Positions 1-53,429 of a stretch of DNA of 64,000 nucleotides are shown here, piece after piece. Every line of letters begins with the position of its first letter. Position 1 is the stretch's first letter. The notes under the pieces are model-generated. The model was not told the DNA's origin and did no database searches. It was given only the letters and a program-made list of their open reading frames with translations. The stretch comes from an uncultured bacterium. Its GTDB lineage: Bacteria; Macinerneyibacteriota; Macinerneyibacteria; Macinerneyibacteriales; CAYRFE01. The stretch lies in the NCBI GenBank assembly GCA_964423645.1, contig CAYRFE010000004.1, positions 27,227 to 91,226 on the forward strand, in the 5' to 3' direction. The position numbers and the translations under genes were made by a program.

Positions 1-1285
1 ATATACGATCTTTTTCAAAAGTCAGTTTATGAAGTTTATTAATCGAGTAAAATACGTACGCATTATTCTGATAGATATAAAAAGAGTTACTTGAAAATTC
101 AGGAAGATCGTTATTTTCAAGACGAATGGTATCCCATTGAAAATTAGAGAATTGCAAAACATTGACAACCCTGTCAGTCGAGGTCGGATCGAAAAATATC
201 CATCTTTGAAATGTGGCATCCCAATAAACAAATGAATTTTTGGAAATTTGTGAAGGAGTACCCAATAATGACTGTTTTACCCATTTTTTCTTGTCAACCT
301 TATACAACTCATTAAGATCCGTAAAGATATAAAAAAATGTCCCGTTTGTAAATACATGTCTCCAGTCAACAGGCTGATCGAAAAGCTGATCAATAGATGT
401 TGAATACTGTACGGTTACCGCTTGATCTTCAGAAGAAGACTGCTGACCAAGTTGAAACCCTTTGAGCTTTAAAATACAATATTTCGCTACGGAAAAGCGT
501 TCTTCAATAATGCATGCATCTAAAACCTTTTCAATGACAGCCACTTTTCGATTCAGATCTATTTTCATACCAGAATTCAAAAAATCATCAATGTCTGCTA
601 TTGTTACTCCGCTTTTAAACACAATATCATAGGGCTTATATGATTCCGAATTTTTAAAATAAGTGTCCCAAATTGAGCGATCGAATGAATCGAAAAATAT
701 ATTTTCTGCGATGCTCATTCGCTGAAGAACATTCTCGATACGGGCCATTTGACTCAGCATTTCATTCGTTTGTCCGCTCAGGCGATAATAATATACCCAA
801 TATTCCATACCGGGCAATGTATCAGAAGCATATGTTGAAACAAATTCTTTAAGCTCTTTTTCATATCGAAGAGAAAACAATACTCGTACATACAAGTCGG
901 TGTTTTCTTGCGAGGGATCCGCCTCGACTTGCGCTTTCACATATTCATATGCTTTTGCAAACTGTTGTTGAATAAGATAAATTTCAATAATTTTTTTCCG
1001 GGCATCATGTCGAATACTGCTTTGGGGGAATTCGGTATGTAATCGCTCAAAATAATACAGCGCTTCGTTGAATTTGCTCTGTTCAAAACTTATTAACCCA
1101 TGGAGATATAATACATCATCATGGAGCCAGTTTTGTGATTTTTTGGAAAGAATGCTGTCACACTTTTTACGGGCTACCTCATATTGCTTCTTCTCATATG
1201 CGCGACGTGCATTATAGAACGTATTATAGTATCCGCATCCTGCAAAAAACAGTATACACCATGCGACAATCATCCAATTTTTCAT
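1..1285 (-). CDS. Hypothetical TPR-like lipoprotein, partial (3' end beyond window start)
   Basis: My translation of the minus strand from the ATG at 1285 gives about 428 codons with no stop to position 1. N-terminus is [20 protein letters not shown] (lipobox FAGC). This ORF is missing from the ORF track because it runs off the window edge. It lies 3 nt downstream of the metK stop, so it is probably co-transcribed. Confidence 0.5.
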
Positions 1286-2460
1286 AAATTTTTTATAATC
1301 TCCTGAATTAAATCCGTTTTTTCCCAACTAAAATCAGGTTCATTCCTACCGAAATGACCATATGCCGCGGTTTTTTTATAGATCGGTCGTTTGAGATCGA
1401 GACGCTCGATGATTGCTGCCGGTCGAAAATCAAAAGCTTTTTGTATTGCGGCAGTCACTTTTTCATCCGAATATTTACCGGTGCCGAATTGATCGACCAT
1501 GAGGGATACCGGATGTGCAACTCCGATGGCATATGCCACTTGAATCTCGACCATCTTTGCTAATCCTGCGGCTACAATATTCTTAGCCACATAGCGTGCG
1601 GCGTACGCTGCCGAACGGTCCACTTTTGAAGGATCTTTACCCGAAAAACACCCGCCGCCATGGGGAGCCATCCCGCCGTATGTATCGACGATAATTTTTC
1701 TTCCCGTAAGACCTGTATCAGCTTTGGGTCCCCCTTCAACAAACAACCCCGTCGGATTTACTAAAAATTTAACGTCATCATATGTAACATGGTGCGTGTC
1801 AAATTCTTCTTTCAAAACCGGCATGATGACATAATCGATAATACCTTTACGCAAATCATCATACGATATGTCGGGACAATGCTGTGATGAGACCACGACC
1901 GTGTCAATTCGTTCTGCTTTATAACCGTTATAATCTACCGTGACTTGTGTCTTTCCATCAGGACGAAGCCAAGGTAATGTTTTATTTTTTCGAACCTCGG
2001 CAAGTTTTTGTGCCAACTGGTGGGCAATATAGATCGGTATTGGCATCAATGCAGGGGTTTCATCATCGGCATACCCGAACATGAGCCCTTGATCGCCGGC
2101 ACCTTGCTCAAGTCGTGATTCACGGTTTACTCCCATAGCAATGTCCGGTGATTGCTCGTCGATTGATGTCAAAACAGCCGACGTATTATAATCAAACCCA
2201 TAGATTGCATCAGTATAACCAATTCGTTTGATCGTCTCACGTACGGTCTTAGGAATATCAACATAAGCTTCCGTGGTAATTTCACCTGACACCATGGTCA
2301 AACCGGTGGTGACTAACGTCTCACACGCAACATGTGCTTCCGCATCTTGCATTAAAATAGCATCCAAAATAGAATCAGATATCTGATCAGCTACTTTATC
2401 CGGATGCCCTTCAGTGACCGATTCAGACGTGAATAAATACGTACCTTGCGATTTTTTCAT
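1282..2460 (-). CDS. metK: S-adenosylmethionine synthetase
   Basis: [19 protein letters not shown] and further MetK signature blocks. I set the start at the ATG at 2460 ([10 protein letters not shown]), which has a GGAGGA RBS 6 nt upstream. The ORF-track N-terminal extension looks like an artifact. Confidence 0.95.
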
Positions 2461-2473
2461 ATATCCTCCGTTA

Positions 2474-3457
2474 TCAATGTGTATATTCGCTATGAGCCCC
2501 AATATTAATATTTTTTTTAACGCCACTCACAACTGCATATTCTCCAATGATGCAATCCTCAGCGACCGAATCACGTACCAGGGCATGTTCATAAATAATA
2601 CTGTTCGAAATGACCGTACCCGTTATCGTCACATTATCCGCTACACCCACATACGGGCCGACAACAGATCGCGACAAAGATATATTCTTGCCCATGACAA
2701 CCGGCTCAATAACAAGAGAATCACCGATTATATGCACACCCTTCTCGCCCTGAGTTGACAACAAAAATCGATTTGTCGCAAGCAAAGTTTCAAATGTGCC
2801 ACAATCAAACCAATTCTCAACCTTATGTACCGTCATTTTTTCACCGATTTCAACGCACCGATTGAGAGCGTCAGTTATTTGATACTCTCCTTTTGTAGTT
2901 ATATTATTGTCGATTATATAATGAATCGCTTCAAAAAGACGTGCGCAACTTTTAATATAATACACTCCTATTAACGCAAGATCGGTAGGTGGGTTTTGTG
3001 GTTTCTCAATTAAGCGAGTAATGAATTCCCCCTTCATTTCAACCACTCCGAATCTGCGCGGATCGTCAACGGATTTTACGCCGAGGGATGATGTCGGTTG
3101 TGACGTGAACGCACGGGCATCGATATCAACTAACGTATCACCTAAAAGGATGAAGAGTTCAGTATCGACTGAAATATACTTTTCTGCCATCAATACCGCA
3201 TGTCCCAGGCCAAGCATCTCTTTTTGTTCAATGAATGTAATGTGTACGCCGGGATATGATTTTTTGACCCACTCGATAAGAACTTCTTTTTTATATCCGA
3301 CTATGATGAATATTTCTTCGGGAGCACTGGTTAATACCGTATCGATTATATGCCCGATTATCGGTTTCCCCGCTACCTCCAGCATAGCTTTCGGGCGTGT
3401 GTGCGTGTGTGGACGAAGGCGTGTTCCGATGCCTGCTGCGGGAATTATAACTTTCAT
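2474..3457 (-). CDS. Sugar-phosphate nucleotidyltransferase with C-terminal left-handed beta-helix (RmlA/GlmU/GCD1-like)
   Basis: N-terminal [16 protein letters not shown]...KPIIGHIID is the NTP_transferase G-x-G-T-R motif. C-terminal hexapeptide repeats (IGxxxxIGxxAxV). Only 13 nt separate it from metK. Confidence 0.8.
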
Positions 3458-3480
3458 AAAAAAACCTCCCGTTGTGAACC

Positions 3481-4362
3481 CTACACAAGAATTTTAACCG
3501 ACTGGGGACAGATCTCAATATCCACACGACGTTTTTCCTTGACCGTTAAATCACCATCGACTTGCCCGCGTGATTCTTTCGTAATTAAACTTACGCGTGG
3601 TACTTGATAATATTCAACATCAGCAGTATTGATATGGTTCCCGCGAAGAACGTCAAGTGCATAAGAAATTGATTTTAAAACACCTTTTTCTTTAAAGATG
3701 CATACATCAAGCAACCCGTCATCCATTTTCGCAAGCGGGGTCATACTGTATTTGCCGCCATAAAATGCCGCATTTCCAACGACAACAAAATAGCCGACAC
3801 GATGAGGTGTGCCGTCACGAAAATCGATATAGATCGGTTCCGGTTTATAGGTAAATAAAGTGGAAAATCCTGCAAGTACATAGGCGTACCGCCCGATTAT
3901 TTTCTTTAATGCGGTATCAACTTTACTGATCGTATGTGCATCAAAGCCGTAACTGACCATCAGTCCGAAATAGACATCACCGAATTTTCCGACATCATAT
4001 GCCTTTGGACGAGCAAATGTAGTAAGATAATATGCCGCTTCAAACGGATTCATGGGAATATCAAGTTCAGCGGCGAGAACGTTTGAGGTTCCGACAGGTA
4101 TAATACCGATTGGAATATCAGTGTGAATTAATTCATTAATGGCAAGATTAACGGTACCGTCACCGCCGCACGTAAACACCATATCACAATGCTCTTTTGC
4201 CTCATGCAATGCTTTCAAGATTTCATCTTTTTTACGTACGAGACTGAGGTCGACCGCATACCCGTTACTGGCAATAATATACATCACTTTCGGGAGATAC
4301 TCCTCGAGAATTCGTTGCCCTGAGTCGGGATTTGCAATGAGCTTTATCAGCTTTTTTTTCAT
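3481..4362 (-). CDS. Diacylglycerol-kinase catalytic-domain lipid kinase (YegS/DgkB/sphingosine-ceramide kinase superfamily)
   Basis: CGGDGTVNLAINEL and GTSNVLA motifs match DAGK_cat. About 290 aa, typical for the family. Confidence 0.8.
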   Translation of the reverse strand: MKKKLIKLIANPDSGQRILEEYLPKVMYIIASNGYAVDLSLVRKKDEILKALHEAKEHCDMVFTCGGDGTVNLAINELIHTDIPIGIIPVGTSNVLAAELDIPMNPFEAAYYLTTFARPKAYDVGKFGDVYFGLMVSYGFDAHTISKVDTALKKIIGRYAYVLAGFSTLFTYKPEPIYIDFRDGTPHRVGYFVVVGNAAFYGGKYSMTPLAKMDDGLLDVCIFKEKGVLKSISYALDVLRGNHINTADVEYYQVPRVSLITKESRGQVDGDLTVKEKRRVDIEICPQSVKILV

Positions 4363-4365
4363 GGC

Positions 4366-5586
4366 TTAAATAAGCCCGATCGTTTTCCCCGCTTTGATTA
4401 TTTTTCCCAACGCAAGCTCAAGTTGAGGACGGGTGTGCGTTGCCATATAACTTGTGCGGATAAGTCCTTGACCCTTTGGCACTGCAGGAGAAACCGTCGG
4501 ATTGACAAATATATTATCATCTTGAAGAATTTTCCACATTTTAAACGTATCAATATCATCGCCGACAATTATCGGTATAATCGGAGTCTCCGCGTGTCCG
4601 ACATTGAATCCGGCCTTTTTCAAACCGTTCAGCATAAAATTGGTATTGTCCCATAATTTGGTAATCAATTCCGGTTCGCGTTCCATAACATCAAGCGCAC
4701 CCATTACAGAACCGGCAGAACCCGGAGGCAACGACGCGCTGAAGATCAACGAACGTGCTTTATGTTTCACAAAATCGATTATTCTCGCATCTCCCGCAAC
4801 AAAACCACCGACTGAAGCCAATGATTTTGAGAATGTGCCGATGACCAAATCGACCTCATTCGCCAGATTAAAATGCTTTGCGGTTCCTCCCCCGTCTTTG
4901 CCCAATACACCCAAAGAATGTGCATCATCGACGATCACACGTGCTCCGTATTTTTTTGCAAGACTTACTATTTCAGGAAGCTTGGCAATATCGCCGTCCA
5001 TCGAGAATATACCGTCGGTAATGATAACCTTCGGATCATCTTTATGTGTTTTTAATACTTTTTCCAGATGATTCATATCTGCATGATTGTAGCGAACCAT
5101 TTTCCCGTACGACATACGTATACCGTCTAAAATACTCGCATGATCAAGTTTGTCGGTGATAACAACGTCTTCTTTTTGACTGGCTATGGCAGAAATGCCC
5201 CCAAGATTCGCCTGATACCCTGTTGCGAACACAAGAGCAGCTTCTTTTCCCGCTAATTTTGCCAAACGTGCCTCAAGCTCTATATGGATATCAAGTGTAC
5301 CATTTAGAAAACGAGAACCGGCACATCCTGTACCGTACTTTTCGATCGCGTCCTGAGCAGCTTTTTTCACATACGGGTGATTGGTCAAACCCAAATAGCT
5401 GTTGGAACCCAACATCAGCACCCGTTTCCCGTTCATGGTGACCTCTGAATCCTGGTCGGACTCAATAATTCTAAAGTAAGGATAAAATCCCGATGCTCGC
5501 GCACGGTCTGCTTCGTTCTCAATATATGCTTTTTCAAAAATATCCATGTCTGTTTCCCCCTCTATCGTTTTATTGTGCTCATTCAT
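4366..5586 (-). CDS. Alpha-oxoamine synthase, serine palmitoyltransferase-like (class II aminotransferase; Kbl/BioF family)
   Basis: PLP-lysine block GTFSKSLASVGGFVAG, FSASLPP, FATGYQANLG and GTGCAGSRFLNGT. By recall these blocks are closer to bacterial SPT than to E. coli Kbl (GTLGKALGG) or BioF. Confidence 0.75.
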   Translation of the reverse strand: MNEHNKTIEGETDMDIFEKAYIENEADRARASGFYPYFRIIESDQDSEVTMNGKRVLMLGSNSYLGLTNHPYVKKAAQDAIEKYGTGCAGSRFLNGTLDIHIELEARLAKLAGKEAALVFATGYQANLGGISAIASQKEDVVITDKLDHASILDGIRMSYGKMVRYNHADMNHLEKVLKTHKDDPKVIITDGIFSMDGDIAKLPEIVSLAKKYGARVIVDDAHSLGVLGKDGGGTAKHFNLANEVDLVIGTFSKSLASVGGFVAGDARIIDFVKHKARSLIFSASLPPGSAGSVMGALDVMEREPELITKLWDNTNFMLNGLKKAGFNVGHAETPIIPIIVGDDIDTFKMWKILQDDNIFVNPTVSPAVPKGQGLIRTSYMATHTRPQLELALGKIIKAGKTIGLI

Positions 5587-5713
5587 TGTATAAGGTTTTT
5601 ATAAAAGTGCAAGTATTTTTATCATGCTTATATCGTTTGTTTTTAATCACATGGACTTTCATTTTTGCTTTTTCACCTACAAACCGATTATCCCCGCATC
5701 TCTTAGTTTTTAG

Positions 5714-5743
5714 GAATAAAAAATCCCCGAAATCTACTCGGGG
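5714..5743 (-). terminator. Rho-independent terminator after the TolC-like gene
   Basis: Hairpin ccccga-aatctac-tcgggg at 5725-5743 with an A-run at 5717-5723 (a T-run on the minus strand). Confidence 0.5.
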
Positions 5744-5778
5744 ATCGAAAGGCAAACACATTGCTCGTCAACCGCTCT

Positions 5779-7119
5779 TTATAACTCTACGTCCATTCCG
5801 ACCGTTTTCAACAAATTATACCAACTCAGATAATAGGCATATTTTGCATTAAGATAATCAACACGTGCTTGTGCATGCTCACGCAAAGCCTCGATTGATG
5901 CCGCATCATCGCTCATACCGAGATCATATTGTTTTAACAAGCGGTCTCGCTTGCTTTCTTTGAGATTCATATCGGTCGTTTTATATTCGAAATAATTCTT
6001 TGATTCGATAAATGAAAAATATTTATCTTTTACGATTCGCTCCAGTGCAAGTGATTTATTGGCAGTCTTGTCGATCTCATATAAATACGCGATCTTGCTT
6101 GATAACACTCCCGGAGTGGTAAGGTCCCCTGTCAACAAAGAACCCGTTACCGTATATCCTTTGCCGGCATCTTCATCACTCGGACGCTCCTGAATCCCGT
6201 AATATGATGCACTTGCCGATGAATAGAGCCATCCTGACAGACTCAGGGAAAAACCGTACTCAAAATCATCATCATTCATATCAGAAAAACTTTCACCTGC
6301 ATAATTATACTTCACATATACGCTTAATTTCGGCCATTTCGCCAATTTATCTGCCCAATAACCATATTTTGCCGCACGATATGTATTCACTTGATTTTTG
6401 TATTCATAACTATTGTCTTTTGCATAGGCCAGATACTCGTCGATACTTTTCGGGGTTGTCTCTGAAAAATTAAAATCCTCCAAGACATTAAAATCTTTCT
6501 TCAGGTAATTCCGGAATGATAATCGCTCGATCTCATAATCATTTTTTGCTTTTGCAGTATTATATTCGGCCAATTTGTAGTATGACTCGTTCTCTAACAA
6601 GCCCTCACGACTTATCCGCCCAAGTTCAAAAAGTTTTTGTGCTTTTTCCCATTGCTTCTGCGCACTTTGAAGCTCATACTCCCAAACATTAATCATTTCT
6701 TGTTTTTTCAATACCGCAAAATATCTACTGATGGTATCAATTACGACATTTTTTTCGGTTTCAGAGAATTTCTGTCGTGCGGCACGCCATGAATAATAAC
6801 CGGAAAGATAATCAAACACTTCACGCCCGTTATAGAAAACCGGCTGTGACAATGTCAATGAACGGGAATATGATTCACTCATAACACCGCTCATATCTTC
6901 AGCTTCAAGATATTTATAACTGAGCGTCGCATCGGGAAGCATTCCCAATAAACCGTTGTTATGTTGAATAAACGCGATCTTCTCCCGATATTTCTCGACC
7001 TTATATTCGGTATTTGTCTCCAAAGAGATATCGATCGCTTCTTTTAGTGTAAGTGCGTGCGAAGTTGTAAAAAGAATCATAGCGGTTATTACAAATAAAA
7101 AACCGGATCGTTTCATCAT
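5779..7119 (-). CDS. TolC-like outer membrane efflux protein (OEP family)
   Basis: Signal peptide followed by LTLKEAIDISLETN, a typical OEP start. About 445 aa with a duplicated coiled-coil/beta architecture. No adjacent pump genes. Confidence 0.65.
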   Translation of the reverse strand: MMKRSGFLFVITAMILFTTSHALTLKEAIDISLETNTEYKVEKYREKIAFIQHNNGLLGMLPDATLSYKYLEAEDMSGVMSESYSRSLTLSQPVFYNGREVFDYLSGYYSWRAARQKFSETEKNVVIDTISRYFAVLKKQEMINVWEYELQSAQKQWEKAQKLFELGRISREGLLENESYYKLAEYNTAKAKNDYEIERLSFRNYLKKDFNVLEDFNFSETTPKSIDEYLAYAKDNSYEYKNQVNTYRAAKYGYWADKLAKWPKLSVYVKYNYAGESFSDMNDDDFEYGFSLSLSGWLYSSASASYYGIQERPSDEDAGKGYTVTGSLLTGDLTTPGVLSSKIAYLYEIDKTANKSLALERIVKDKYFSFIESKNYFEYKTTDMNLKESKRDRLLKQYDLGMSDDAASIEALREHAQARVDYLNAKYAYYLSWYNLLKTVGMDVEL

Positions 7120-7272
7120 ATCACCTTCCGTTATAGTTAATCATACATACGCCCCATATCTCTTTTTGTTGCATATATGACACGAATCATACCGCATTTG
7201 TTTCAGTGAATATATACCTTTTACGCAAAAATAACAACGTACAAACGTACATTTACACTACAAAGCAAGAAT

Positions 7273-7653
7273 CTATTTCTTTCCGACACATGTTTCGCAA
7301 ATACCCGTGAAGTACAATACATGTCGTGTTATTTCAAAATGATAGTGTCGCTCGAGATCTTTTACCGTGTCATGAAGTGTACACGGCCCAAGAGGTATAA
7401 AGGTATGACAGTGACTGCAATGAAAAAAATGAGTGTGCTCGCCATTCAAGGGATAATAATATCGCAATGTGCCTTCTCGTTCACAGTGATAGGTAAATGC
7501 TTCAATAAGTCCGTTCTTTTCAAAATACGCGAGCGCACGATACACGGTGACGCGATCAGACCCGCTGCCGCCGTGTTCAAAAACATCATTCGCGGTCACA
7601 GGTTTATCTGCATCATTAATATAACGAAGTAATATCTTTCGAATACGCGTCAT
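7273..7653 (-). CDS. zur: Fur-family metalloregulator, probably Zur
   Basis: Fur-family size, with HCSHCH and C-x2-C metal site motifs. It is the last gene of the znuACB operon. Confidence 0.75.
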   Translation of the reverse strand: MTRIRKILLRYINDADKPVTANDVFEHGGSGSDRVTVYRALAYFEKNGLIEAFTYHCEREGTLRYYYPLNGEHTHFFHCSHCHTFIPLGPCTLHDTVKDLERHYHFEITRHVLYFTGICETCVGKK

Positions 7654-8450
7654 CGCAACACTCGCCCTGCAATAAAAGCGATCACAAATAAAATGAAATT
7701 GACTGCTACAATTGCCGCCCCGGTCGGGAGATTGAACAGTGCAGAAATTACAATGCCGGAAAACACCGCTACGACCGACACAAATACTGCCGTCATTGCC
7801 GCTTTTTTAAAACTATGTGCGATTTGAAGTGCCGTCACTGCAGGGAAAATAAGCAAACTGGAAATCAATAACGTCCCTACCACACGAATACCGACTACGA
7901 TTGTGCATGCAGCAAGTACTACCAACACTTTCTGCAACAAACCGACGCGTATTCCCGATACACGTGCGAAATCTTCATCGTAGGTAAGTGAAAACAGATC
8001 GTGATAATAATACCATAATACTGCCACTGTGAATATCGATATTCCCGCAGCCCATACCACTTCTGATGTTGTTACGGAGATAATACTCCCAAAAAGATAA
8101 CTGAAAAGATCAACGTTGAACCCGCCCGACAAACTCGCCGCCAGCACTCCGACCGCGATCGCAAGTGTCGACACCATCGCGATAGCCGTATCACCGTAGA
8201 CAACCTTTGCATCCGCCAAGCGATAGATCCACAATGATGCCGCTATCGTAAAAGGAATTGCAAAATATAACGGTGCAACACCCAAAACCATTGCGATACC
8301 GATTGACGCAAATGCCGAATGCGCGAGTCCGTCTCCAAGCATCGAAAAACGTCGCAAAACTAAAAATAGTCCGAGAATCGCGGTGCTTACACCGATAAAC
8401 ATTCCCGCGATCAATGCCCGTTGCATGAATCCATAGGTAAAAATATCCAT
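7650..8450 (-). CDS. znuB: Zinc/manganese ABC transporter permease
   Basis: Polytopic membrane protein of ABC-3 family type. Sits in operon with znuC and znuA. Confidence 0.85.
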   Translation of the reverse strand: MDIFTYGFMQRALIAGMFIGVSTAILGLFLVLRRFSMLGDGLAHSAFASIGIAMVLGVAPLYFAIPFTIAASLWIYRLADAKVVYGDTAIAMVSTLAIAVGVLAASLSGGFNVDLFSYLFGSIISVTTSEVVWAAGISIFTVAVLWYYYHDLFSLTYDEDFARVSGIRVGLLQKVLVVLAACTIVVGIRVVGTLLISSLLIFPAVTALQIAHSFKKAAMTAVFVSVVAVFSGIVISALFNLPTGAAIVAVNFILFVIAFIAGRVLR

Positions 8451-9172
8451 TACACACCTCTCTTACTATGATGCGAATGGTTAAAATAGTGTTCTTTTTG
8501 TTGTGAAAAATAATCCTCCATAGACCCGTAATAAAGTAACGTTCTGTCTAAATACAACACCGAGCGTGCATAATAACGAATAGCCGACACATCATGAGTG
8601 ACCATAATGACGGTAATATGGTGTTCACTGTTGAGAGCGGCTATTGTTTTATAAAAACACTCCCGTGTGTGCGGATCAAGTGCGGCTGTCGGTTCATCCA
8701 ACACCAAAAGAGACGGATTACTGACCAATGCTCGTGCAAGATGCACGCGCTGTTGCTGTCCACCCGACAACAATCCGACGCGTTTATGTGCAAGATCGTG
8801 AATCTCCAGAATATGCAGAATTTCTTCAACCTGCTCCTTATCCGAACTGTCGTAGACGCGACGTTTTTCAAGTCCTGACGCGACCACCTCCCGCACTGAT
8901 GCAGGAAATAACGGATCGACTGACGTTGATTTCTGCGGCAAATACCCGATACAATCAAAACATGTGCCATACTGCTCACTTTCGTTGAAAACGATCGTGC
9001 CTTCAAAAGGCATCAATAATCCGACGATAGTTTTGATAAGCGTGGTCTTTCCCGACCCGTTCGGGCCTGCAACCGCTAAAAAGTCGCCACGCGAAATGAC
9101 ACAATTAATATCATTCAATACCGCCTCAGCGCCGTAGCGGACAGATACATTTCGAACCGTAATATGCGACAT
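8450..9172 (-). CDS. znuC: Zinc ABC transporter ATP-binding protein
   Basis: Walker A GPNGSGKTT, ABC signature LSGGQQQRV, Walker B LLVLDEP. Confidence 0.9.
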   Translation of the reverse strand: MSHITVRNVSVRYGAEAVLNDINCVISRGDFLAVAGPNGSGKTTLIKTIVGLLMPFEGTIVFNESEQYGTCFDCIGYLPQKSTSVDPLFPASVREVVASGLEKRRVYDSSDKEQVEEILHILEIHDLAHKRVGLLSGGQQQRVHLARALVSNPSLLVLDEPTAALDPHTRECFYKTIAALNSEHHITVIMVTHDVSAIRYYARSVLYLDRTLLYYGSMEDYFSQQKEHYFNHSHHSKRGV

Positions 9173-9175
9173 ACA

Positions 9176-10120
9176 TCACCTGAGCGCTTTCAGAAGTTTG
9201 TCAAGATTGGCTTCCATTATCTCGGTGTAATGAACTCCTTTGAGAAATTCATCTTTACTCACATTGTGTACGCCGTGCAATAAAACAAGTGATGCGCCGG
9301 TCTCTTTTTTAATCACTTCAGCGATCCTCGGTTGTGTCAGTTCTTCATAGAAAACAGTTGTTTGTCCGGTTTTTTTCATTAAGGATATCATTTCTTTTAT
9401 AGCGGCCGGTGTCGGTTCTGCATTGGGAGAAAACCCTTTATACGGAGACACATGATCAAGTTTGTATCTCTGTGCAAAATAACCGAATGCAAAATGCCCC
9501 GCGTAAATAACTGTGCGATGACGAAGTGTTGCCAATTCCTTTTCGCACCGAGTATGTAGCTCCATAATATCTGCTTGCACTATCTCCGCATTACGAATAT
9601 ACGTCATCGCATTCTTCGGATCTTTTTGCACGTATGCATTGACAATAGTATCGACCATTTGTGCGGCAAATATCGGATCGAGCCATATATGAGGATCTTT
9701 CGTGTGACTTTTTTCTTCATCATGTTGATCATGCTCGTCAGCATCATCGTGGTGATGGTCGCCGTCACTATCCATCAGATCTATTCCCTTTGAAGTATCA
9801 ACGATGATCGCAGACGATTTCGGTAGAGAGGCACGCACTTTTTCAGCCCACGGTTCCATATATTTTCCGGTATAAATAAAAAGTGATGCATCGGCAATTG
9901 TCTTGATATCCATCGGTGTCGGCTCAAATGAATGTACCTCTACTCCGGGCGGGATTATCATCGTCACGTCTGCTACATCCCCGGCGATAGTCCGTGCAAA
10001 ATCATACAAGACATAGTTGGTAGTGACAATTTTCATGCGTCCTGTGTCTTCTTTTTTTCCTGCACACGCACTGAATAATACCAGAAGCACCGCAATAACA
10101 ATAACACGTATATAATTCAT
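9176..10120 (-). CDS. znuA: Zinc ABC transporter substrate-binding lipoprotein with His/Asp-rich loop
   Basis: Lipoprotein signal LLVLFSAC. His-rich loop DSDGDHHHDDADEHDQHDEEKSH, typical of ZnuA. TroA-like fold. Confidence 0.85.
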   Translation of the reverse strand: MNYIRVIVIAVLLVLFSACAGKKEDTGRMKIVTTNYVLYDFARTIAGDVADVTMIIPPGVEVHSFEPTPMDIKTIADASLFIYTGKYMEPWAEKVRASLPKSSAIIVDTSKGIDLMDSDGDHHHDDADEHDQHDEEKSHTKDPHIWLDPIFAAQMVDTIVNAYVQKDPKNAMTYIRNAEIVQADIMELHTRCEKELATLRHRTVIYAGHFAFGYFAQRYKLDHVSPYKGFSPNAEPTPAAIKEMISLMKKTGQTTVFYEELTQPRIAEVIKKETGASLVLLHGVHNVSKDEFLKGVHYTEIMEANLDKLLKALR

Positions 10121-13898: not shown

Positions 13899-14861
13899 TT
13901 ATTTCAAATGCTTCTTCGCCCATTCCGCTGTTTTCAATATGCCTTCGTCAAGGTCGATCTTCGGCTCAAACTGTAGTATTTCCCGCGCTTTTTCGATCGA
14001 CGGGATACGCAAGTCGATATCCGCTGAAAGGTCCGGTTTGAAATAGATCTTCGACTTTGAATCCAACACGCGACATATCGTCTGTGCAAGCCCGTAAATA
14101 GTGATGATCGCACGCGGATTACCGATATTGAAGGTCTCGCCTATAGCGTTCTTGTTCTCAAGACATGCCAAAAGCCCGTCTACGAAATCGTCGACAAAAC
14201 ACCATGCACGAATACGGCTTCCGTCTCCGTAAATATTGATATCTTTATTCTGTAATGCATTGTTAATAAATATCTGAATCGCGCCCTCACCTGTTTGCCC
14301 GGGGCCGTAGACATTGAACGGACGCACGCTCACGGTAGGAAGTTTGAACTCTTTGTTGTAGGCCATGGTGAGATGCTCACCCGCAAGTTTGCTCACCGCA
14401 TAGGTCCAACGTGCTTCACCGGCCGTACCGGCCACGGTGCTGTCGGTCTCGGCTGATTTATATGCCATACTTCCGAATACTTCTGATGTGGAAAAATCAA
14501 TGAATCTATCCTTAATACCATTTTCCTTAGCCGCCTCAAGCGCATGTGCAGTACCGATCATATTCACCCGCATCGTTTTGGTCGGATGCACGATAACAGT
14601 ATCAATACCCGCGATCGCCGCCGCATGGATCACGATATCGGCACCCTTCATCGCGTTTTTCAAAGACTCATACTCAAGCACATCACCTTTTACGGCAGTA
14701 AGATTTTTATGATGTGCATACTTGCTGTCACTCAACGTATCACGGTGAAAATTATCATATGCGACTATCTCATTGCCTTCGATCAACTTTTCTATCACTT
14801 TGTTTGCAATAAATCCTGCACCGCCCGTAATAAAAATGCGCTTGCCCTTTATCATATCCAA
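13899..14861 (-). CDS. NAD-dependent sugar epimerase/dehydratase (SDR)
   Basis: [10 protein letters not shown] Rossmann motif, YAVSK (YxxxK) and TSEVFG. The probable start is MIKGKRIF, 2 codons into the track ORF. Confidence 0.85.
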
Positions 14862-14866
14862 CCCCC

Positions 14867-16096
14867 TTATTTGCTTTCGCTGTCGTTATATTTATCAAAG
14901 ATCCGCACTTGTGTCTGTTCTCCGGTCGTATTATAAATAACTTTCAATTCATCGTAGGTATACGGACGTGTGAACTTAAGATAAAAACTTTTCGGCACAA
15001 GATTCATGTTCGAAAGGATCTTGAACAACCAGCGAAGTTTCTCAAACGTCTGCTTATACGTCTTGTAGTCAAGAAACGTTTTCTTCGGCGCGTTCATCGT
15101 TGCGTCAAATTCCTCGTCGATAAATCCGAGACGTTTTTTCACCTCGTCGAGAATGTCTTTATCAAACGGTTTCGGTTCTTTAATTTTCACAAGCGCTTCA
15201 TCACGCGTCATCTGACCGGAGCGAATAAGTGCAGAAAATTCGCAAAACCGCAGATCGATATTGAATTTCAACGGCAGATAATAATTGTTGGCAAAATATG
15301 CCGTGCGATTCTCCATGTGATGCCCGCCGTACCACTGCCAACCCAGCTCGGATGAAAGGAACTTCTTGACCTCTTCTTTGTTGTAATCAAGATAGTACAA
15401 CGGACGAATTTTTTTGATACCGTCGAATGTGATCCACTTCAGCCAACGCGTGATCCAGAGATTGGGAAGCGTTTTTATCGGCAGAGAGCCGAATTTTTTC
15501 TGAATACCTGCAATATACTTCGCATCCATATAAAACCAACCGACGGGAGAGATCCCTTCGGTGCGGAACGAATGCCCTTCGAAAATGTATTTGATACCGT
15601 ATTTTTTGGCGGCAAGATAATGTGTGGTGGCAAGCGCAATGTCGGCAGGCGTGTCTATTTCGGGTACGGACGCCTTCATGAAGGATTTAAAAATGTCGTT
15701 ATATTCTTTGTTGTCCACGACATGCGTGTAGAGGTCGATACCGAGTTTTTTGGTCACCGCGTAAATATTCTCCACAGCGATCTTTGAATCCCATGTATTG
15801 TCGAAATGCACGGCAAGCGGACGTAATCCCAACACTTCTTTTGCGTAATACATCAGATACGACGAATCACAGCCGCCGCTTACGCCGATCACGATATCGT
15901 ATTTTTTACGCTTGCTTTCTTTTTTGATCTTTTCGGCCAAGGCGACAAGATACTGTGTGCCTTCATCGCCGGTGGGATATTCTTTATCGAGCTGTTCGAT
16001 CTGCCGGCAGTAGTTGCAAACTCCTTCTTCGTCAAAACTGATGTTCGGGATCCGTTCGTCGTAAATACATCGGTTGCATACCTGCATGGCGGTCAT
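14867..16096 (-). CDS. N-acetyl sugar amidotransferase, WbuX-type (PP-loop ATPase)
   Basis: N-terminal Cys cluster CNRC...CNYCRQ. PP-loop SGGCDSSY. WbuX/LPS-AsnB-like family; it normally pairs with the HisH/HisF-like genes at 17272-18808. Confidence 0.75.
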
Positions 16097-16201
16097 TCCT
16101 TTCGCGGTGTGATTCTACCTTCATTATCGGTAAAACGAGTAATTCCTGAAGGTTCGTACAAGTATACAACATAAATTACGTCTCTTCACGCATTTTTTTT
16201 A

Positions 16202-16795
16202 TTAAGAAAATGGATTCTCCTCGTCGTCCTGCCACCGGGCAGGATTATTGATGATGTATTCACGAATGCGGTTGAGATCGGATTCATCGCGAATGATGTG
16301 TTCGTAATAATTGCGTTGCCATAATCGCGTATTAAATCGTTTCCATTGTAATTCATTTACACCGCGTACATATAATAACGTCGTCAACGATTTGTATTCA
16401 CCAACAATTTTGCCCAATGTTACCGTAGGGGCAATCCCTTGTGGTTGCCCATGTAATTGTGATAATTCATTTTCATTACCCTCGAGGGCGCCCACAAGAG
16501 GCGCCCCTACGGTGGATTCGATTTCATGAATATACAAAATTCCGTGGAAATGATTCGGCATGATCACGAATTCATCCAATTCAACCGATGGATAATGATC
16601 GGGGATCTCCAACCAACATCGTTCAACCATTTTCCCCGCGTCGTTCAATACCATCTCGCCGTCGATGATATCGCCGAATAGGCATTCCCGATTGTGCGCG
16701 CAAACGGTCACAAAATACACCCCTGCCGAGGAATAATCATACTCTTTCAGGCGGAGAGAATGACGGTGGAATTTATTTTTAAATAGCAAGATCAC
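16202..16795 (-). CDS. REP-associated tyrosine transposase / IS200-IS605 TnpA-like HUH (Y1) transposase
   Basis: HUH motif VIMPNHFHGILYI. Catalytic Tyr region WQRNYYEHIIRDESDLNRIREYIINNPARW. About 197 aa, as in RAYTs. Confidence 0.75.
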   Translation of the reverse strand: MILLFKNKFHRHSLRLKEYDYSSAGVYFVTVCAHNRECLFGDIIDGEMVLNDAGKMVERCWLEIPDHYPSVELDEFVIMPNHFHGILYIHEIESTVGAPLVGALEGNENELSQLHGQPQGIAPTVTLGKIVGEYKSLTTLLYVRGVNELQWKRFNTRLWQRNYYEHIIRDESDLNRIREYIINNPARWQDDEENPFS

Positions 16796-16864
16796 ATCTT
16801 TTCATCCAGAACCATAACAATTTCCCAAAATAAAAGCTTAGATTTATATTACTGAATGTTCTTG

Positions 16865-17176
16865 TTAACCTATCCAATCTTTGGAATAAACCTTTCCATT
16901 TACAAAAGTTATATAAATTATTTTTATCTTTAGACCCAATTTTGTTCCCGCACTTTTATATGTCCAATATTCAAACGTTCCAAAGCTTTTTGTCGTTGTC
17001 TCTCCAACTTCATCAGGTTTTCGACCGATTATTTCAATAACTTTTTCTTTAGTCATTCCTATATCAATCTTATCATAATTTTTTTTCGTGATTTTAAATA
17101 CTGCACCATAAATATTCAATGAATCAATTAACAATATTAATACAACCACGACTCTAATAATGTTTCTTTTTGTCAT
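16865..17176 (-). CDS. Small secreted protein (possibly BamE/SmpA-OmlA-like)
   Basis: Signal peptide, then GMTKEKVIEIIGRKPDE. Very AT-rich codon usage. Confidence 0.4.
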   Translation of the reverse strand: MTKRNIIRVVVVLILLIDSLNIYGAVFKITKKNYDKIDIGMTKEKVIEIIGRKPDEVGETTTKSFGTFEYWTYKSAGTKLGLKIKIIYITFVNGKVYSKDWIG

Positions 17177-17271
17177 AATGCTTCTCCTTGAATAATAAAA
17201 TCACAACCATTATCTGCCACCTATCCTCCCACCAATACAACATTGCCCGACCAACACAAAAAAAAACTTCC

Positions 17272-18033
17272 TCACGGCACCAATCTCTTCAATTCCTCCT
17301 GTAAGGGGAAATTGATAAGCACCGATCGGATCCGTCCCTGGTAGATGAACAAACTTCCCGCCGCCACGGCGGATGCTTTGCCTTCCTGCACGACCTTGGC
17401 GATATCAGCATATTCACCTGCGCCGCCCAGTGCGATCACGGGTATATTCACCGCATCGGTGACCATTCGCACAAGTTCGCAATCATACCCGTCCATCATG
17501 CCGTCGCGGTCGATGCTGTTGAGAAGGATCTCTCCTGCGCCGAGTTCTTCCATCTTTTTCGCATACGTAACAGGATCTTCCCCCGTATTCTTCGTGCCGT
17601 GCCGAGTGAATACTTTGTAACCGCCGAACATTGTTTTTTTCACGTCGATGGATGCGATGATGCTCTGATTACCAAAAATTCGCGCCGCTTCTGAGACAAA
17701 CGCGGGATTTTCGTATGCATAAGAATTCACCGCCACTTTCTCCACCCCCAGTTTGAATATCGTGCGTATATCGTCGATAGAACGGATCGCACCGCTGTAC
17801 GCCATCGGCATAAAACACTCGCTTGTGATCTCTTCGATAAGCGCGAAGGGCGGTTTACGCCCGTCAACAGTAGCAGTAATATCGGCGATTATGAGTTCAT
17901 CGACTTCTTTTTCGTTATAAATTTTGATGGCATTCACCGGATCACCGATATAATTGAGTTTCTTGAATTGTATGGATTTGACCAAACGACCATCCTGTAC
18001 AAGTAAACACGGCATCACACGAGTTTTCAGCAT
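17272..18033 (-). CDS. Imidazole glycerol phosphate synthase cyclase subunit-like, WbuZ-type (HisF family)
   Basis: HisF-like TIM barrel (RVMPCLLVQDGRLVK...DELIIADITAT...GGAGEYAD). Glycan-cluster context rather than a his operon. Confidence 0.85.
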   Translation of the reverse strand: MLKTRVMPCLLVQDGRLVKSIQFKKLNYIGDPVNAIKIYNEKEVDELIIADITATVDGRKPPFALIEEITSECFMPMAYSGAIRSIDDIRTIFKLGVEKVAVNSYAYENPAFVSEAARIFGNQSIIASIDVKKTMFGGYKVFTRHGTKNTGEDPVTYAKKMEELGAGEILLNSIDRDGMMDGYDCELVRMVTDAVNIPVIALGGAGEYADIAKVVQEGKASAVAAGSLFIYQGRIRSVLINFPLQEELKRLVP

Positions 18034-18060
18034 TGAGATCCCTTTAATTCATACGTATGA

Positions 18061-18150
18061 TGTGTGCCCACCCCGTACCCCTCCCGTAATGATCGGGATG
18101 GGTTTTTGTAATTATAGTGTGGGGACGTTGTCCCCACACCCCTGATAAAA
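18061..18150. repeat. REP/MITE-like element copy (partial, inverted orientation)
   Basis: tgtgcccaccccgtacccctcccgtaatgatcgggatggg ... tgtggggacgttgtccccacacccc. Palindromic G/C-run hairpins matching the 29957-30120 element. Confidence 0.6.
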
Positions 18151-18193
18151 TATTCATGACAATACATATTTTCACTATTCCATCTATTCACAA

Positions 18194-18808
18194 TTAAAGC
18201 TCCGCGAAGTTTTTAAGTAACTTCATGCCGAATTTGTGACTTTTTTCAGGATGAAACTGCGCTCCGTAGATATTACCGCGCTCTACTGCCGAAGTAAAGG
18301 CATAGCCGTATTCGGTCTTACATAATGAGTCGCTGTCATCGGTACATACCACATGAAACGAATGCACAAAATAATAACGCGGTTCATCATACATATCGGC
18401 AAACAACTTACTCTCTTTGCATATCTCCACCGTATTCCATCCCATATGCGGAATACGCAGTTTCGCATTTTCTCCGGTGAACGCAAACCGCTTTGTTTCA
18501 CCTTTGATCCACCCTAAGCCGGGAAGTGTACCTTCTTCGCTTCTTTCGGTAAGTAACTGCATCCCAAGGCAAATACCGAGTGTGGGTGTTTTTTCCGCAA
18601 GAACTTTTTCGCGTAATACGGGGATAAGCTTCATCTCATTAAGATTTTTCATGGCATTATCAAATGCTCCTACGCCGGGTAAAATCAACTTATCCGCCGT
18701 CATGATCTCGTCATGCGAAGAAGCAATTTTTACGGCAACTCCCACTTTTTTAAACATGTTTTGAATTGATTTCAAATTACCCATACCGTAATCGACAATC
18801 ACGATCAT
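18194..18808 (-). CDS. Glutamine amidotransferase subunit, WbuY-type (HisH family)
   Basis: Class I GATase: GICLGMQLL catalytic Cys, with HPE at the C-terminus. Confidence 0.85.
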   Translation of the reverse strand: MIVIVDYGMGNLKSIQNMFKKVGVAVKIASSHDEIMTADKLILPGVGAFDNAMKNLNEMKLIPVLREKVLAEKTPTLGICLGMQLLTERSEEGTLPGLGWIKGETKRFAFTGENAKLRIPHMGWNTVEICKESKLFADMYDEPRYYFVHSFHVVCTDDSDSLCKTEYGYAFTSAVERGNIYGAQFHPEKSHKFGMKLLKNFAEL

Positions 18809-19356
18809 TCTGTTTCACCGTGATCCCTATATCGTAATATTTTCGCCGGCACTCCTGCCGCTACTGCAAAAGGCGGAATATCATGCGTCACTACCGCACC
18901 TGCGCCTATAATTGCACCTTCACCGATGGTCACACCCGGCAAAATGATCGTCCCGACACCGATGTCGCTACCGTCGCCGATCACCACCGGTTTGAAGTCC
19001 AACGGATTATGCATGACGGGCTTGGTAATATCTCCCGCGTCTTCATGAACCGAAGTAAGAATTTTCACATGAGGACCGATGCCTACTCCCTTTCCGATAG
19101 TAATAGTTCCGGCGCTATGGAAAAAACATCCTTGCCCGATCCATGTATGATCACCAATATGCATTTCATTTTTGTAATATCCTTTCAGGACAGTACCATG
19201 ACCGATATAAATATTGTTCCCGAGCATAAGCGTCTCAGGGTGAAACACCAGCACTCCCGGCTCGATCACAACATTGTCACCGATTGTTTTAAACTGTTCC
19301 CGAGTAAATTCACCCGTTCCGTGAGATTGAAATTTCTTTATACTTGAAAAATCCAT
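18805..19356 (-). CDS. Sugar N/O-acetyltransferase, left-handed beta-helix (hexapeptide) family
   Basis: Repeated [LIV]G-x4 hexapeptides (IGDGSDIGVGTIILPGVTIGEGAIIGAGAVV). Confidence 0.8.
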   Translation of the reverse strand: MDFSSIKKFQSHGTGEFTREQFKTIGDNVVIEPGVLVFHPETLMLGNNIYIGHGTVLKGYYKNEMHIGDHTWIGQGCFFHSAGTITIGKGVGIGPHVKILTSVHEDAGDITKPVMHNPLDFKPVVIGDGSDIGVGTIILPGVTIGEGAIIGAGAVVTHDIPPFAVAAGVPAKILRYRDHGETE

Positions 19357-19360
19357 ACCA

Positions 19361-20461
19361 TCACCCTATCATTTTCAAAAGCGCCGCTGCAACAAAATGC
19401 GCATCGTCTTCACTGACGTGATTTCCCATCGGCAATGCAAGACCATGTTTATACGCACGGTATGCTCCGGGACAATCGCTCTCTTTATAACCGTATTTTT
19501 CTTTGTAATAGGTCAATGCATTCAGTGCATACGCACCGTAATTGGTCTCGATTCCGTTTTCTTTTAATCGTACAATCAGCGCATCGCGGTCAACCGTATC
19601 CGGCAAAACCACATGATATGTCTGATATACATGTACACGATCATTATATTCACGGGGAAGAACAATCTCTTCGTTTTGTGATAGATCTTGCGTATAGATC
19701 GATGCAATTCGCCGACGATATGCATTAAGCTCATTGGTTGCGTATAACTGCGCACAACCCAATGCCGCTTGAATATCAGTTAACCGATAATTCAATCCTG
19801 CATATACAAAATCAATTTTACCGTCATGAGCGACTATTCCATGATTACGAAGCGATCTCACTTTATCGGCACGATCATCGTCATCAGTGACCACAAACCC
19901 GCCTTCTCCGGTAGTGATCGCCTTACGCGGGTGAAGACTGTAACATCCCATATTCCCGGTCGTGCCGGTTTTTTTACCTCGATATACTGCGCCGAATGCA
20001 CATGCTGAATCATCAATGACAATAAGACCGTGACGTTTGGCGATTGCATGAATAGTATCATTATCTGCCGATTGACCGAATTCATGCACCGGTATAATAG
20101 CTTTGGTAAACGGAGTTATCTGTCCTTCGATGAGATCCTCATGCAGACAACAATCATCGACTCGAATATCAACAAGTCGCACGGTCGCACCGGTTATTTC
20201 AACCACATTTGCAGTCGCAGGAAACGTAAACGCCGGCACGATCACTTCATCGCCGGCACCGATTCCATATGTCATAAGGGCTAAATGTAATGCGGCAGTC
20301 GCAGAAGATACGGCGATCGCATGACGCGTTCCCAAATACGCGGCGGCTTCTTCTTCCAATCGTTTCGCAAACACACCCTGCACCAGATTGCCTGATTCAA
20401 GGACTGTTTTTACATCATCGAACGCTTGTTCCGGTATCCATGGTTTACTGAGTTTTATCAT
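19361..20461 (-). CDS. DegT/DnrJ/EryC1/StrS family PLP-dependent sugar aminotransferase
   Basis: MIKLSKPWIPEQAFDDVKTVLESGNLVQG; CYSLHPRKAITTGEGG region around the Lys. Confidence 0.9.
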   Translation of the reverse strand: MIKLSKPWIPEQAFDDVKTVLESGNLVQGVFAKRLEEEAAAYLGTRHAIAVSSATAALHLALMTYGIGAGDEVIVPAFTFPATANVVEITGATVRLVDIRVDDCCLHEDLIEGQITPFTKAIIPVHEFGQSADNDTIHAIAKRHGLIVIDDSACAFGAVYRGKKTGTTGNMGCYSLHPRKAITTGEGGFVVTDDDDRADKVRSLRNHGIVAHDGKIDFVYAGLNYRLTDIQAALGCAQLYATNELNAYRRRIASIYTQDLSQNEEIVLPREYNDRVHVYQTYHVVLPDTVDRDALIVRLKENGIETNYGAYALNALTYYKEKYGYKESDCPGAYRAYKHGLALPMGNHVSEDDAHFVAAALLKMIG

Positions 20462-20498
20462 ACTTTACGTTCCTTTTCATACCCCTCATTACACACCA

Positions 20499-20726
20499 TT
20501 ATTCATCATCGCCGTGGGTTTTAGAATCTTTATCCAAATATGCACACACTCCGAGAAACAGTGCGACCAATACAAGTTTTACAATCCAATGCGGATTATA
20601 ATTTTCTAAAGAAACATCTATTAGCCCAATAATAATAAATACTATTGCTAACCCAATTACTGCCGCAATGACAATCAATACTGTTCTGAGTGTCGGACTG
20701 ATTTTACGCATCGCCATCGCCACCAC
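20499..20726 (-). CDS. Small membrane protein, hypothetical
   Basis: 75 aa with two hydrophobic helices. Sits between the aminotransferase and the glycosyltransferase. Confidence 0.35.
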   Translation of the reverse strand: MVAMAMRKISPTLRTVLIVIAAVIGLAIVFIIIGLIDVSLENYNPHWIVKLVLVALFLGVCAYLDKDSKTHGDDE

Positions 20727-20746
20727 TCCCGTTTCGGTATTACAAA

Positions 20747-22129: not shown

Positions 22130-22282
22130 AGATAAAATTATACCTGATATATACACGTACCGCAATATCAAATATATACCGAATCGAACCGATACTATTC
22201 AAATTTTTATGTTGTTTCAAAAATAAACCTGACCTATAATGATTCGCGACACATACGGCATCAACGAGAGGAAAAGTAGTGT

Positions 22283-53356: not shown

Positions 53357-53429
<73 letters not shown>

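Follow-up and report, generated by a model that had tools for sequence, protein, structure and literature searches.

A conserved operon of serine palmitoyltransferase, lipid kinase, nucleotidyltransferase and MetK genes as a testable lead to a phosphorylated sphingolipid in an uncultured Mcinerneyibacteriota-related bacterium

Results

Organization of the operon

The window analysed here, 64,000 nt of contig CAYRFE010000004.1 (positions 27,227 to 91,226) from an uncultured bacterium, lies on a metagenomic contig of 160,004 bp (ENA ERZ27262924, k141_91876). On its minus strand, positions 1-5612 hold five co-directional genes in the order spt (serine palmitoyltransferase-like synthase), lipid kinase, nucleotidyltransferase (NTase), metK and tetratricopeptide repeat (TPR) lipoprotein (Table 1), and, as judged from the sequence, this region is a single operon. 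An earlier note, made from the letters of the window, had described the same five packed minus-strand genes, and all were present. The junctions read from the sequence were 3 nt between spt and the kinase gene, 23 nt containing GGGAGG between the kinase and NTase genes, 13 nt containing GGAGG between the NTase gene and metK, and -4 nt between metK and the lipoprotein gene, where the metK stop overlaps the lipoprotein ATG (ATGA).

Table 1. Features of the operon and its 5' boundary
Feature	Window position	Strand	Size and remarks
spt, serine palmitoyltransferase-like alpha-oxoamine synthase	4366-5547	(-)	393 aa
DAGK_cat + YegS_C lipid kinase, GGDGT motif	3481-4362	(-)	293 aa
Sugar-1-phosphate nucleotidylyltransferase-like NTase	2474-3457	(-)	327 aa; NTP_transferase domain and short beta-helix-like tail
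metK, S-adenosylmethionine synthetase	1282-2460	(-)	392 aa
Lipoprotein with N-terminal TPR repeats, 5' part	1-1285	(-)	BamD/YbgF-like; runs off the window start
Operon 5' leader	5548-5612	(-)	Shine-Dalgarno-like GAGGGGG at 5562-5556; tentative promoter
Intrinsic-terminator-like hairpin and T-run	5722-5746	(-)	Ends the upstream TolC-like gene; marks the operon 5' boundary

The synthase gene had previously been extended to position 5586. Since the synthase is called from ATG 5547 in public assemblies, with the Shine-Dalgarno-like GAGGGGG 8 nt upstream, this end coordinate was 39 nt too far. The alternative ATG at 5586 falls within a -10-like TACAAT, and the 406-aa open reading frame starting there is probably not used. 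The candidate promoter consists of TTGCAC (5612-5607), a 16-nt spacer and TACAAT (5590-5585); it is only tentative because the -35 element matches at 3 of 6 positions and the site was not listed by the consensus scan. Further upstream, the hairpin at 5746-5722, with a 10-pair stem (5 pairs GC) followed by TTTTATT, separates the operon from the TolC-like gene. For the operon, the Rfam scan listed neither a SAM riboswitch nor any other RNA element; its single match was a tRNA at 53357-53429.

The TPR lipoprotein predicted in the earlier note was confirmed by the lipobox FFAGC. Its full size on the parent contig is 720 aa (locus L084, 14263-16425). The N-terminus gave weak TPR, BamD/YfiO and YbgF-like matches, and the remaining ~500 residues matched nothing.

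Identity of the synthase

The NCBIfam model with the highest score for the synthase was NF047600 SerpalmtaseCFB (575.4 bits), with a lead of 140 bits over gly_Cac_T_rel, a BioF/Kbl-related subfamily (434 bits), which was followed by Kbl (412), BioF (390), ALAS (275) and CqsA (220). The scores of both Kbl models lay below their cut-offs (411.7 against 460 bits for NF005394; 336.8 against 493 bits for TIGR01822), and the Pfam match to Aminotran_1_2 was 205 bits. In the PDB, the best match was 3a2b, the serine palmitoyltransferase (SPT) of Sphingobacterium multivorum, at 464 bits; the next, a BioF/Kbl enzyme, reached 335 bits.

The Spt motifs GSNSYLGLT, GTGCAGSRFLNGT, GTFSKSLASVGGF and FSASLPP were found in the synthase, including the two (GTFSKS..GGFVAG and FSASLPP) on which the earlier reading of the protein as Spt-like had been based. 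GTFSKSLASVGGF aligns with Lys244 of S. multivorum SPT, and the sequence G-T-F-S-K-S with the Schiff-base lysine has been called characteristic of SPT (PMC10196870). At the positions of these Spt-type motifs, Escherichia coli Kbl shows GTLGKALGGASGG and FGMASVRFICGT, so that GTFSKS stands against the Kbl-type GTLGKA, and GTGCAGSRF against FGMASVRF.

The contacts of S. multivorum SPT with pyridoxal 5'-phosphate (PLP) and L-serine comprise Asn52, Ala79-Gly80-Ser81, Phe83, His138, Ser185, Asp210, His213, Thr241, Ser243, Lys244 and Phe272-Ser273-Ala274, and Met271 touches the substrate via its main chain (PMC10196870). All of the former are identical in the synthase, both in an ungapped alignment with 3a2b and in the multiple alignment; the sole change among the contact residues is Met271 to Ile.

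A neighbour-joining tree was calculated from 86 sequences, namely the window protein, 83 spt homologues from the fetched loci, and Kbl and BioF of E. coli. In this tree, a distance method with these two outgroups only and with ALAS and CqsA not included, the synthase fell inside a clade of Spt proteins from Sphingobacterium, Mucilaginibacter, Pedobacter and Bacteroides, with Kbl and BioF outside. The BLOSUM distance to the synthase was 0.65 for Kbl and 0.75 for BioF, compared with 0.37-0.40 for Spt of other phyla. Readings as Kbl, BioF, ALAS, CqsA or cysteate acyltransferase (28eh, 270 bits) all scored below the 575 and 464 bits obtained with the Spt model and structure, and the motifs and tree concurred. 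Based on the models, motifs, tree and the sister-lineage context described below, the synthase is predicted to be the serine palmitoyltransferase of a bacterial ceramide pathway, in agreement with the Spt-like assignment first made.

The earlier note had offered, as an alternative, that the synthase is the Kbl partner of a threonine dehydrogenase (Tdh) encoded at 23056-24012. The Tdh call itself was correct: the protein encoded there, on the minus strand, is an L-threonine 3-dehydrogenase of the short-chain dehydrogenase/reductase (SDR) type (PDB 7ol1, 459 bits). There was no kbl beside tdh and no second alpha-oxoamine synthase anywhere in the 64-kb window; a separate kbl may lie outside it. 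The neighbours of tdh are a 2-thiouracil-desulfurase-like gene (24037-24432) and a gene for a 201-aa protein without assignment. E. coli Kbl and BioF share with the window synthase the PLP-dependent alpha-oxoamine synthase fold and the position of the catalytic lysine; unlike the Tdh-Kbl pair of E. coli, the synthase has other motifs and does not adjoin tdh.

Ceramide pathway genes

In sister lineages whose Spt is 77% and 69% identical to that of the window, the operon is preceded by genes for three proteins: one with four transmembrane segments (4-TM), a GNAT-type acyltransferase of 370 aa and an SDR of 329 aa. The GNAT/SDR pair, which is bCerS-like and CerR-like, lies directly upstream of spt in most of the kinase-bearing sister loci. 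The label 'bCerS-like' rests on GNAT matches, conserved adjacency and secondary citations. For a wider comparison of synteny, 80 spt loci were used from a scan that gave at least 600 candidate stretches, in which the best match listed was 62% identical. The GNAT gene, the SDR gene or both flanked the spt homologue in 46 of the 80 loci, from many phyla, with the known sphingolipid producers Sphingobacterium, Pedobacter and Mucilaginibacter among them. This Spt-bCerS-CerR arrangement has been described in the literature (PMC11087976, PMC11334938).

A search for ceramide synthase or reductase homologues, as proposed in the earlier note, thus succeeded in the sister lineages; within the window itself, tblastn found neither a bCerS nor a CerR homologue. 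Two SDRs of the window were considered as CerR and rejected: the protein at 23056-24012 is the true L-threonine dehydrogenase, and neither it nor the SDR at 13899-14861 was matched by tblastn with a CerR-like protein. A GNAT homologue of the window organism (P0146) is recorded on a contig of 160,004 bp, which is also the length of the contig that holds the window. On a 155,722-bp JGI contig, P0146 is flanked by a small membrane protein, an SDR and a DUF1232 protein. It is therefore very probable that bCerS and CerR of the window genome are on the same contig as spt, and from collinearity they would be some 55-60 kb away from it. The window genome would accordingly contain the whole core of the ceramide pathway.

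Some further features of these loci were recorded. The 4-TM protein (131-139 aa, no family match) always directly precedes and slightly overlaps the bCerS-like gene in this lineage (for example, L001 5481-5900; L086 9613-10008 and 12070-12435). Downstream of its CerR-like gene, the window organism encodes a DUF1232 protein. In a Chloroflexi locus (L061, 9093-11182), the gene immediately before the spt homologue encodes a classical adh_short SDR, with no bCerS- or CerR-like gene within 10 kb, which may represent a eukaryote-like KDS-reductase arrangement.

The lipid kinase and its linkage to spt

The assignment of the second gene product as a lipid kinase of the YegS/DgkB type with a GGDGT motif was borne out. 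Pfam matches were obtained to DAGK_cat (87 bits) and YegS_C (77 bits), with GGDGT at residues 66-70, and the score of 128.7 bits against TIGR00147 was above the cut-off of 118.65. The AlphaFold2 model (pLDDT 92.6) superimposed with TM-scores of 0.80-0.84 on DgkB-like kinases and human SphK1.

Homologues of the kinase were searched among 5.8 billion clustered proteins. The orthologous group comprised 12 clusters with at least 64% identity, after which identity dropped sharply to 38%, the level of generic DAGK-family kinases. Twelve other contigs with a visible upstream gene were recovered, representing three sub-lineages. On every one the kinase gene comes immediately after spt, with a junction of at most 3 nt or an overlap; one of these contigs belongs to Candidatus Mcinerneyibacterium aminivorans, the nearest named relative. 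A kinase-centred metagenome scan gave six loci, all of the same lineage. Kinase identity between lineages was 63-76%, level with Spt and MetK.

A DAGK-type kinase gene also adjoins spt, divergently, in three Bacteroidales loci, which corresponds to the BF2461-BF2462 layout of Bacteroides fragilis. This Bacteroidales kinase formed a clade apart from the window kinase, so the two are not orthologous. It also passes the generic TIGR00147 model, and because of this the YegS/BmrU label is uninformative on the substrate. Based on the identity of 28-30% and the separate clades, the association of kinase and spt in the window lineage probably arose independently of that in Bacteroidales; that is, a DAGK-fold kinase appears to have joined spt in this lineage on a separate occasion. 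The strong conservation of the kinase-spt linkage makes it reasonable to propose a step that forms a sphingoid or ceramide phosphate, and dihydrosphingosine or dihydroceramide is the most likely substrate predicted from these comparisons. To that extent the route suggested in the earlier note stands, with a kinase that is not the orthologue of the Bacteroidales enzyme.

Conservation of the block

The order spt-kinase-NTase-metK(-TPR lipoprotein) recurred on all 12 other contigs, so the clustering is not the coincidence that the earlier note had entertained. Nine of the 12 carry all five genes; only part of the block is visible on the other three, namely L093, L104 and L090, in which spt is cut at the contig end. 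The TPR lipoprotein holds its place in the nine loci that extend past metK, at only 25-27% identity. In the sister lineages, plsX lies just downstream of the operon.

The upstream context was more variable. The bCerS-CerR pair was found upstream on eight of the 12 kinase-bearing contigs, and elsewhere the context differs or is missing. The spt-kinase-NTase-metK genes stay together while this context changes three times, the neighbour being bCerS-CerR in two sub-lineages and the TolC-like gene in the window; in a sister species (92% identical), a methyltransferase/gidAB region takes this place. In the last of these (L104; JGI 3300020048, Ga0207193_1002024; Spt 92% identical), yidC-trmE-gidA-gidB-methyltransferase genes are upstream of the retained block, which indicates that the block has moved as a unit. 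The L104 sister species shares its sample with one copy of the window genome.

The nucleotidyltransferase and MetK

The NTase matched Pfam NTP_transferase (PF00483, 110 bits, residues 2-233), and the loop G-x-G-T-R-x-x-P-x-T-x-x-x-P-K is present. The best model was TIGR01208 rmlA_long, at 220.9 bits below its cut-off of 320.25, with an alignment covering residues 2-315; no equivalog cut-off was reached, the other models being further below theirs. The best PDB match was of the ST0452 type at 81 bits, with all others at or below this score. The earlier description as an RmlA/GlmU-like enzyme with a left-handed beta-helix (LbH) tail held for the NTP_transferase domain; for the tail, no significant Pfam hexapeptide match was obtained in the window NTase, and what speaks for it is the full-length alignment to rmlA_long together with weak LbH_EIF2B and GMPPB_C matches in orthologues. 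MetK was confirmed as canonical, scoring 582 bits against TIGR01034 (cut-off 309) and containing all three S-AdoMet synthetase Pfam domains. The cluster contained no glycosyl-, phosphoglycosyl- or CDP-alcohol-type transferase and no methyltransferase. The NTase and MetK genes, predicted to be co-transcribed, hold their order across the lineage, but both are of housekeeping-type families with a broad distribution. Their products may contribute to head-group synthesis, or the two genes may do no more than use a common promoter.

Comparison with known sphingolipid loci

The earlier note had regarded the pairing of spt with a lipid kinase as potentially noteworthy, and this novelty was overstated, given the reports from B. 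fragilis (PMC3712910), Caulobacter (PMC11324152) and ~40 phyla (PMC11334938). In B. fragilis, the Spt BF2461 has been known since 2013 to be encoded next to the putative sphinganine kinase BF2462 (PMC3712910). Kinases that act on dihydrosphingosine or ceramide have also been characterised from bacteria (PMC9045371, PMC10331486): Porphyromonas gingivalis dhSphK1 (PG1348) phosphorylates dihydrosphingosine (PMC9045371), and the Caulobacter ceramide kinase CpgB contains an LCB5 domain (PMC9393093, PMC10331486). Genes for Spt-like, bCerS and CerR proteins have been reported in ~40 phyla (PMC11334938, a study of Black Sea metagenome-assembled genomes).

Like the window operon, the B. fragilis-like loci combine a CFB-type Spt, 53-62% identical to that of the window, with a DAGK_cat/YegS_C kinase that belongs to TIGR00147. 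They differ in that the Bacteroidales kinase gene is divergent from spt, whereas the window kinase gene runs in the same direction after a 3-nt gap, and in that the Bacteroidales spt loci are without NTase or MetK.

The Caulobacter crescentus locus CC_1152-CC_1168 includes spt, bcerS, cerR, the gene for CpgB and those for the predicted nucleotidyltransferases CC_1161, CC_1153 and CC_1152 (PMC11324152). The likeness to the window lineage lies in the ceramide core, the LCB5/DAGK-type kinase making ceramide-1-phosphate and the nucleotidyltransferase-like genes for proposed nucleoside diphosphate (NDP)-activated intermediates (PMC9393093, PMC10331486, PMC11324152); CpgB and the window kinase were likened via their shared LCB5/DAGK superfamily only (PMC9393093). 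In contrast, the Caulobacter Spt is of the proteobacterial type and works with an acyl carrier protein and an acyl-CoA synthetase (PMC9386255), neither of which is in the window operon. The Caulobacter nucleotidyltransferases are CDP-DAG-synthase-like, CofC-like and LicD/Gtp2-like, compared with the RmlA-like NTase of the window, and the Caulobacter locus is without MetK, whereas the window operon has metK.

Spt-bCerS-CerR clusters in diverse anaerobic bacteria are attributed to Stankeviciute et al. 2022 in PMC11087976. This triad is the core shared with the window lineage and is contiguous in the sister lineages. Separation of spt from bCerS/CerR, as reported for Cloacimonadota and Bacteroidota, is also the case in the window genome. 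The text of PMC11334938 contains none of the terms 'kinase', 'nucleotidyl' and 'operon' and does not name Mcinerneyibacteriota. In the literature, no description was found of a co-directional, tight spt-kinase pair with a non-orthologous kinase, of a fixed union of spt and kinase with an RmlA-like NTase and metK, or of an spt-kinase operon in a Mcinerneyibacteriota-related lineage.

Other features of the window

Directly upstream of the operon, at 5779-10120 on the minus strand, a zinc-uptake unit with genes for ZnuA, ZnuC, ZnuB and a Fur/Zur-family regulator is followed by that for the TolC-like outer-membrane protein. A sugar-modification/polysaccharide cluster at 13899-22171 (minus strand) encodes an epimerase/dehydratase, an Asn-synthase/PP-loop-like protein, a HisF-like and HisH-like pair, an LbH acetyltransferase, a DegT aminotransferase and a fusion of TPR with a GT1 glycosyltransferase, and is interrupted by an IS200-like transposase remnant (16202-16795). 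This cluster might use NDP-sugars. Six-bladed beta-propeller proteins (DUF5128/NHL), three in number and similar enough to look like paralogues, are encoded at 35392-36519, 39516-40586 and 61080-62048, and the second half of the window contains several TPR proteins, including a GT2-TPR fusion at 62521-63945.

Discussion

We consider it probable that spt, kinase, NTase, metK and TPR lipoprotein genes form one operon in which Spt belongs to the ceramide pathway and the kinase is likeliest a sphingoid-base or ceramide kinase. Spt would convert serine and an acyl-CoA to 3-ketosphinganine, and the bCerS-like GNAT acyltransferase and CerR-like SDR reductase would take 3-ketosphinganine to dihydroceramide. 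The kinase, whose gene adjoins spt closely and is probably coupled to it in translation, would be a soluble two-domain enzyme of the DAGK/SphK fold, recruited within the lineage from generic lipid kinases of the YegS/DgkB type. It is predicted to phosphorylate the C1 hydroxyl of dihydrosphingosine or dihydroceramide, which would serve either to begin a phospho-head-group or to regulate how much free long-chain base is present, as was proposed for BF2462/dhSphK1 and shown for CpgB. More weakly, the NTase might make an NDP-sugar or another NDP-activated phospho-alcohol, with MetK making S-adenosylmethionine (SAM).

Several observations weigh against this interpretation. The 575 bits of the synthase are below the equivalog cut-off of NF047600, 640, a value tuned to the CFB group. 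The placement of bCerS and CerR on the same contig as spt was deduced rather than read in the sequence. The fold search with the kinase model does not tell diacylglycerol (DAG) from sphingoid substrates, and by sequence the kinase has more in common with generic members of the DAGK family (35-38% identity) than with the kinases encoded beside spt in Bacteroidales (28-30%, 80-107 bits). The two nearest generic outgroup kinases examined are not encoded next to spt. A relative whose Spt is 72% identical (L105, 1222-6859) has bCerS-CerR-spt followed by two convergent FA_hydroxylase genes, and no kinase, NTase or MetK at this locus. The block is thus not needed for ceramide synthesis, and the hydroxylase genes suggest a different tailoring of the sphingolipid, by hydroxylation. 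Finally, the NTase family is broad, with 584 cluster representatives of ~325-335 aa at E<1e-30, and its identities fall smoothly from 56% to 35%, unlike those of the isolated kinase group. A profile search of the 80 spt loci gave one NTase homologue, 6.6 kb from spt in L061; it was rejected as a partner of spt, an unrelated TetR gene and a MacB-type exporter lying in between. Because of this breadth and this absence at other spt loci, what connects the NTase and MetK with a head group is synteny within the lineage, and the nucleotide-activated head-group chemistry put forward in the earlier note gained nothing beyond it.

With regard to the outgroup kinases, the nearest (38%) lies between a GT4 glycosyltransferase gene and MlaE/MlaD genes (L094, 6345-9981), a setting that is also lipid-related but of another kind, with no spt.

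A more far-reaching scheme would make the whole block a head-group pathway for a lineage-specific, new phosphosphingolipid. The kinase would produce ceramide-1-phosphate or dihydrosphingosine-1-phosphate, the NTase would activate either the lipid phosphate or a sugar or alcohol phosphate, and a SAM-dependent modification would be possible. Nucleotidyltransferases of the GT-A type activate many phospho-alcohols, as is established for LicC, IspD, TarI and CofC. Across three sub-lineages the order spt-kinase-NTase-metK does not vary, and the genes of the block relocate together. Caulobacter needs nucleotidyltransferase-like genes to form CPG2, and an NDP-activated ceramide has been proposed there (PMC11324152). 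Against this, the cluster has neither a glycosyl-, phosphoglycosyl- or CDP-alcohol-type transferase nor a methyltransferase, no gap in the broad NTase family marks a specialised clade, and NTases were not found at the other spt loci. MetK looks like an ordinary housekeeping enzyme, and both the N-terminal motif and the best matches of the NTase point to ordinary sugar-1-phosphates. We therefore regard a full head-group pathway as unlikely. It is similarly doubtful that the block represents a previously undescribed phosphosphingolipid route, in which a kinase recruited independently of the Bacteroidales one and an activated intermediate from the RmlA-like NTase would lead to a new head group.

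A second alternative, which also appears improbable, is a coincidental membrane-biogenesis operon, in which a general kinase of the DgkB/YegS type, for diacylglycerol or another glycerolipid, shares a strong promoter with spt and with a housekeeping NTase and MetK. In favour of this, the one model whose cut-off the kinase reaches is the generic TIGR00147 (YegS/BmrU), the structures most like it are those of DgkB-like proteins, and the outgroup sequences nearest to it are generic kinases; moreover, a close Spt relative is without the block, and plsX is found just downstream in the sister lineages. However, the kinase group consists of 12 clusters only, and every member with visible context directly follows spt with a junction of at most 3 nt. 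The Bacteroides Spt-adjacent kinase is also in TIGR00147, so this label says nothing on the substrate, and the kinase-spt linkage has survived three upstream rearrangements.

That the synthase is instead the Kbl partner of the Tdh, or a bifunctional BioF/Kbl enzyme, is very improbable: a genuine SDR-type Tdh without adjacent kbl is present, with no other alpha-oxoamine synthase in the window, and the Kbl and BioF models still give the synthase ~390-410 bits, but the Spt models and structure outscore them by 130-160 bits, the motifs and the clade in the tree are those of Spt, bCerS/CerR adjoin spt in the sister lineages, and the Tdh gene is 17.5 kb away in an unrelated context.

Read as one of a ceramide-pathway Spt with a probable sphingoid-base or ceramide kinase, the operon offers a lead to a phosphorylated sphingolipid that can be tested, and it does not amount to a new type of system. 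Should only the kinase step be true, it would be a new member of a known theme and of modest importance. Head-group pathways of bacterial sphingolipids are known in few organisms, namely Bacteroides, Sphingomonads and Caulobacter. Metagenomic predictions of sphingolipid producers now extend to dozens of phyla, most of whose lipids are uncharacterised. The operon provides a compact, clonable construct (spt and kinase genes, with or without the NTase gene, together with bCerS and CerR). It bears on whether sphingoid bases or ceramide are substrates of a DAGK-fold kinase that would be the third to have been recruited independently, on whether an RmlA-type nucleotidyltransferase has a role in the synthesis of sphingolipid head groups, and on the lipid of an uncultured, Mcinerneyibacteriota-related lineage from anoxic habitats.

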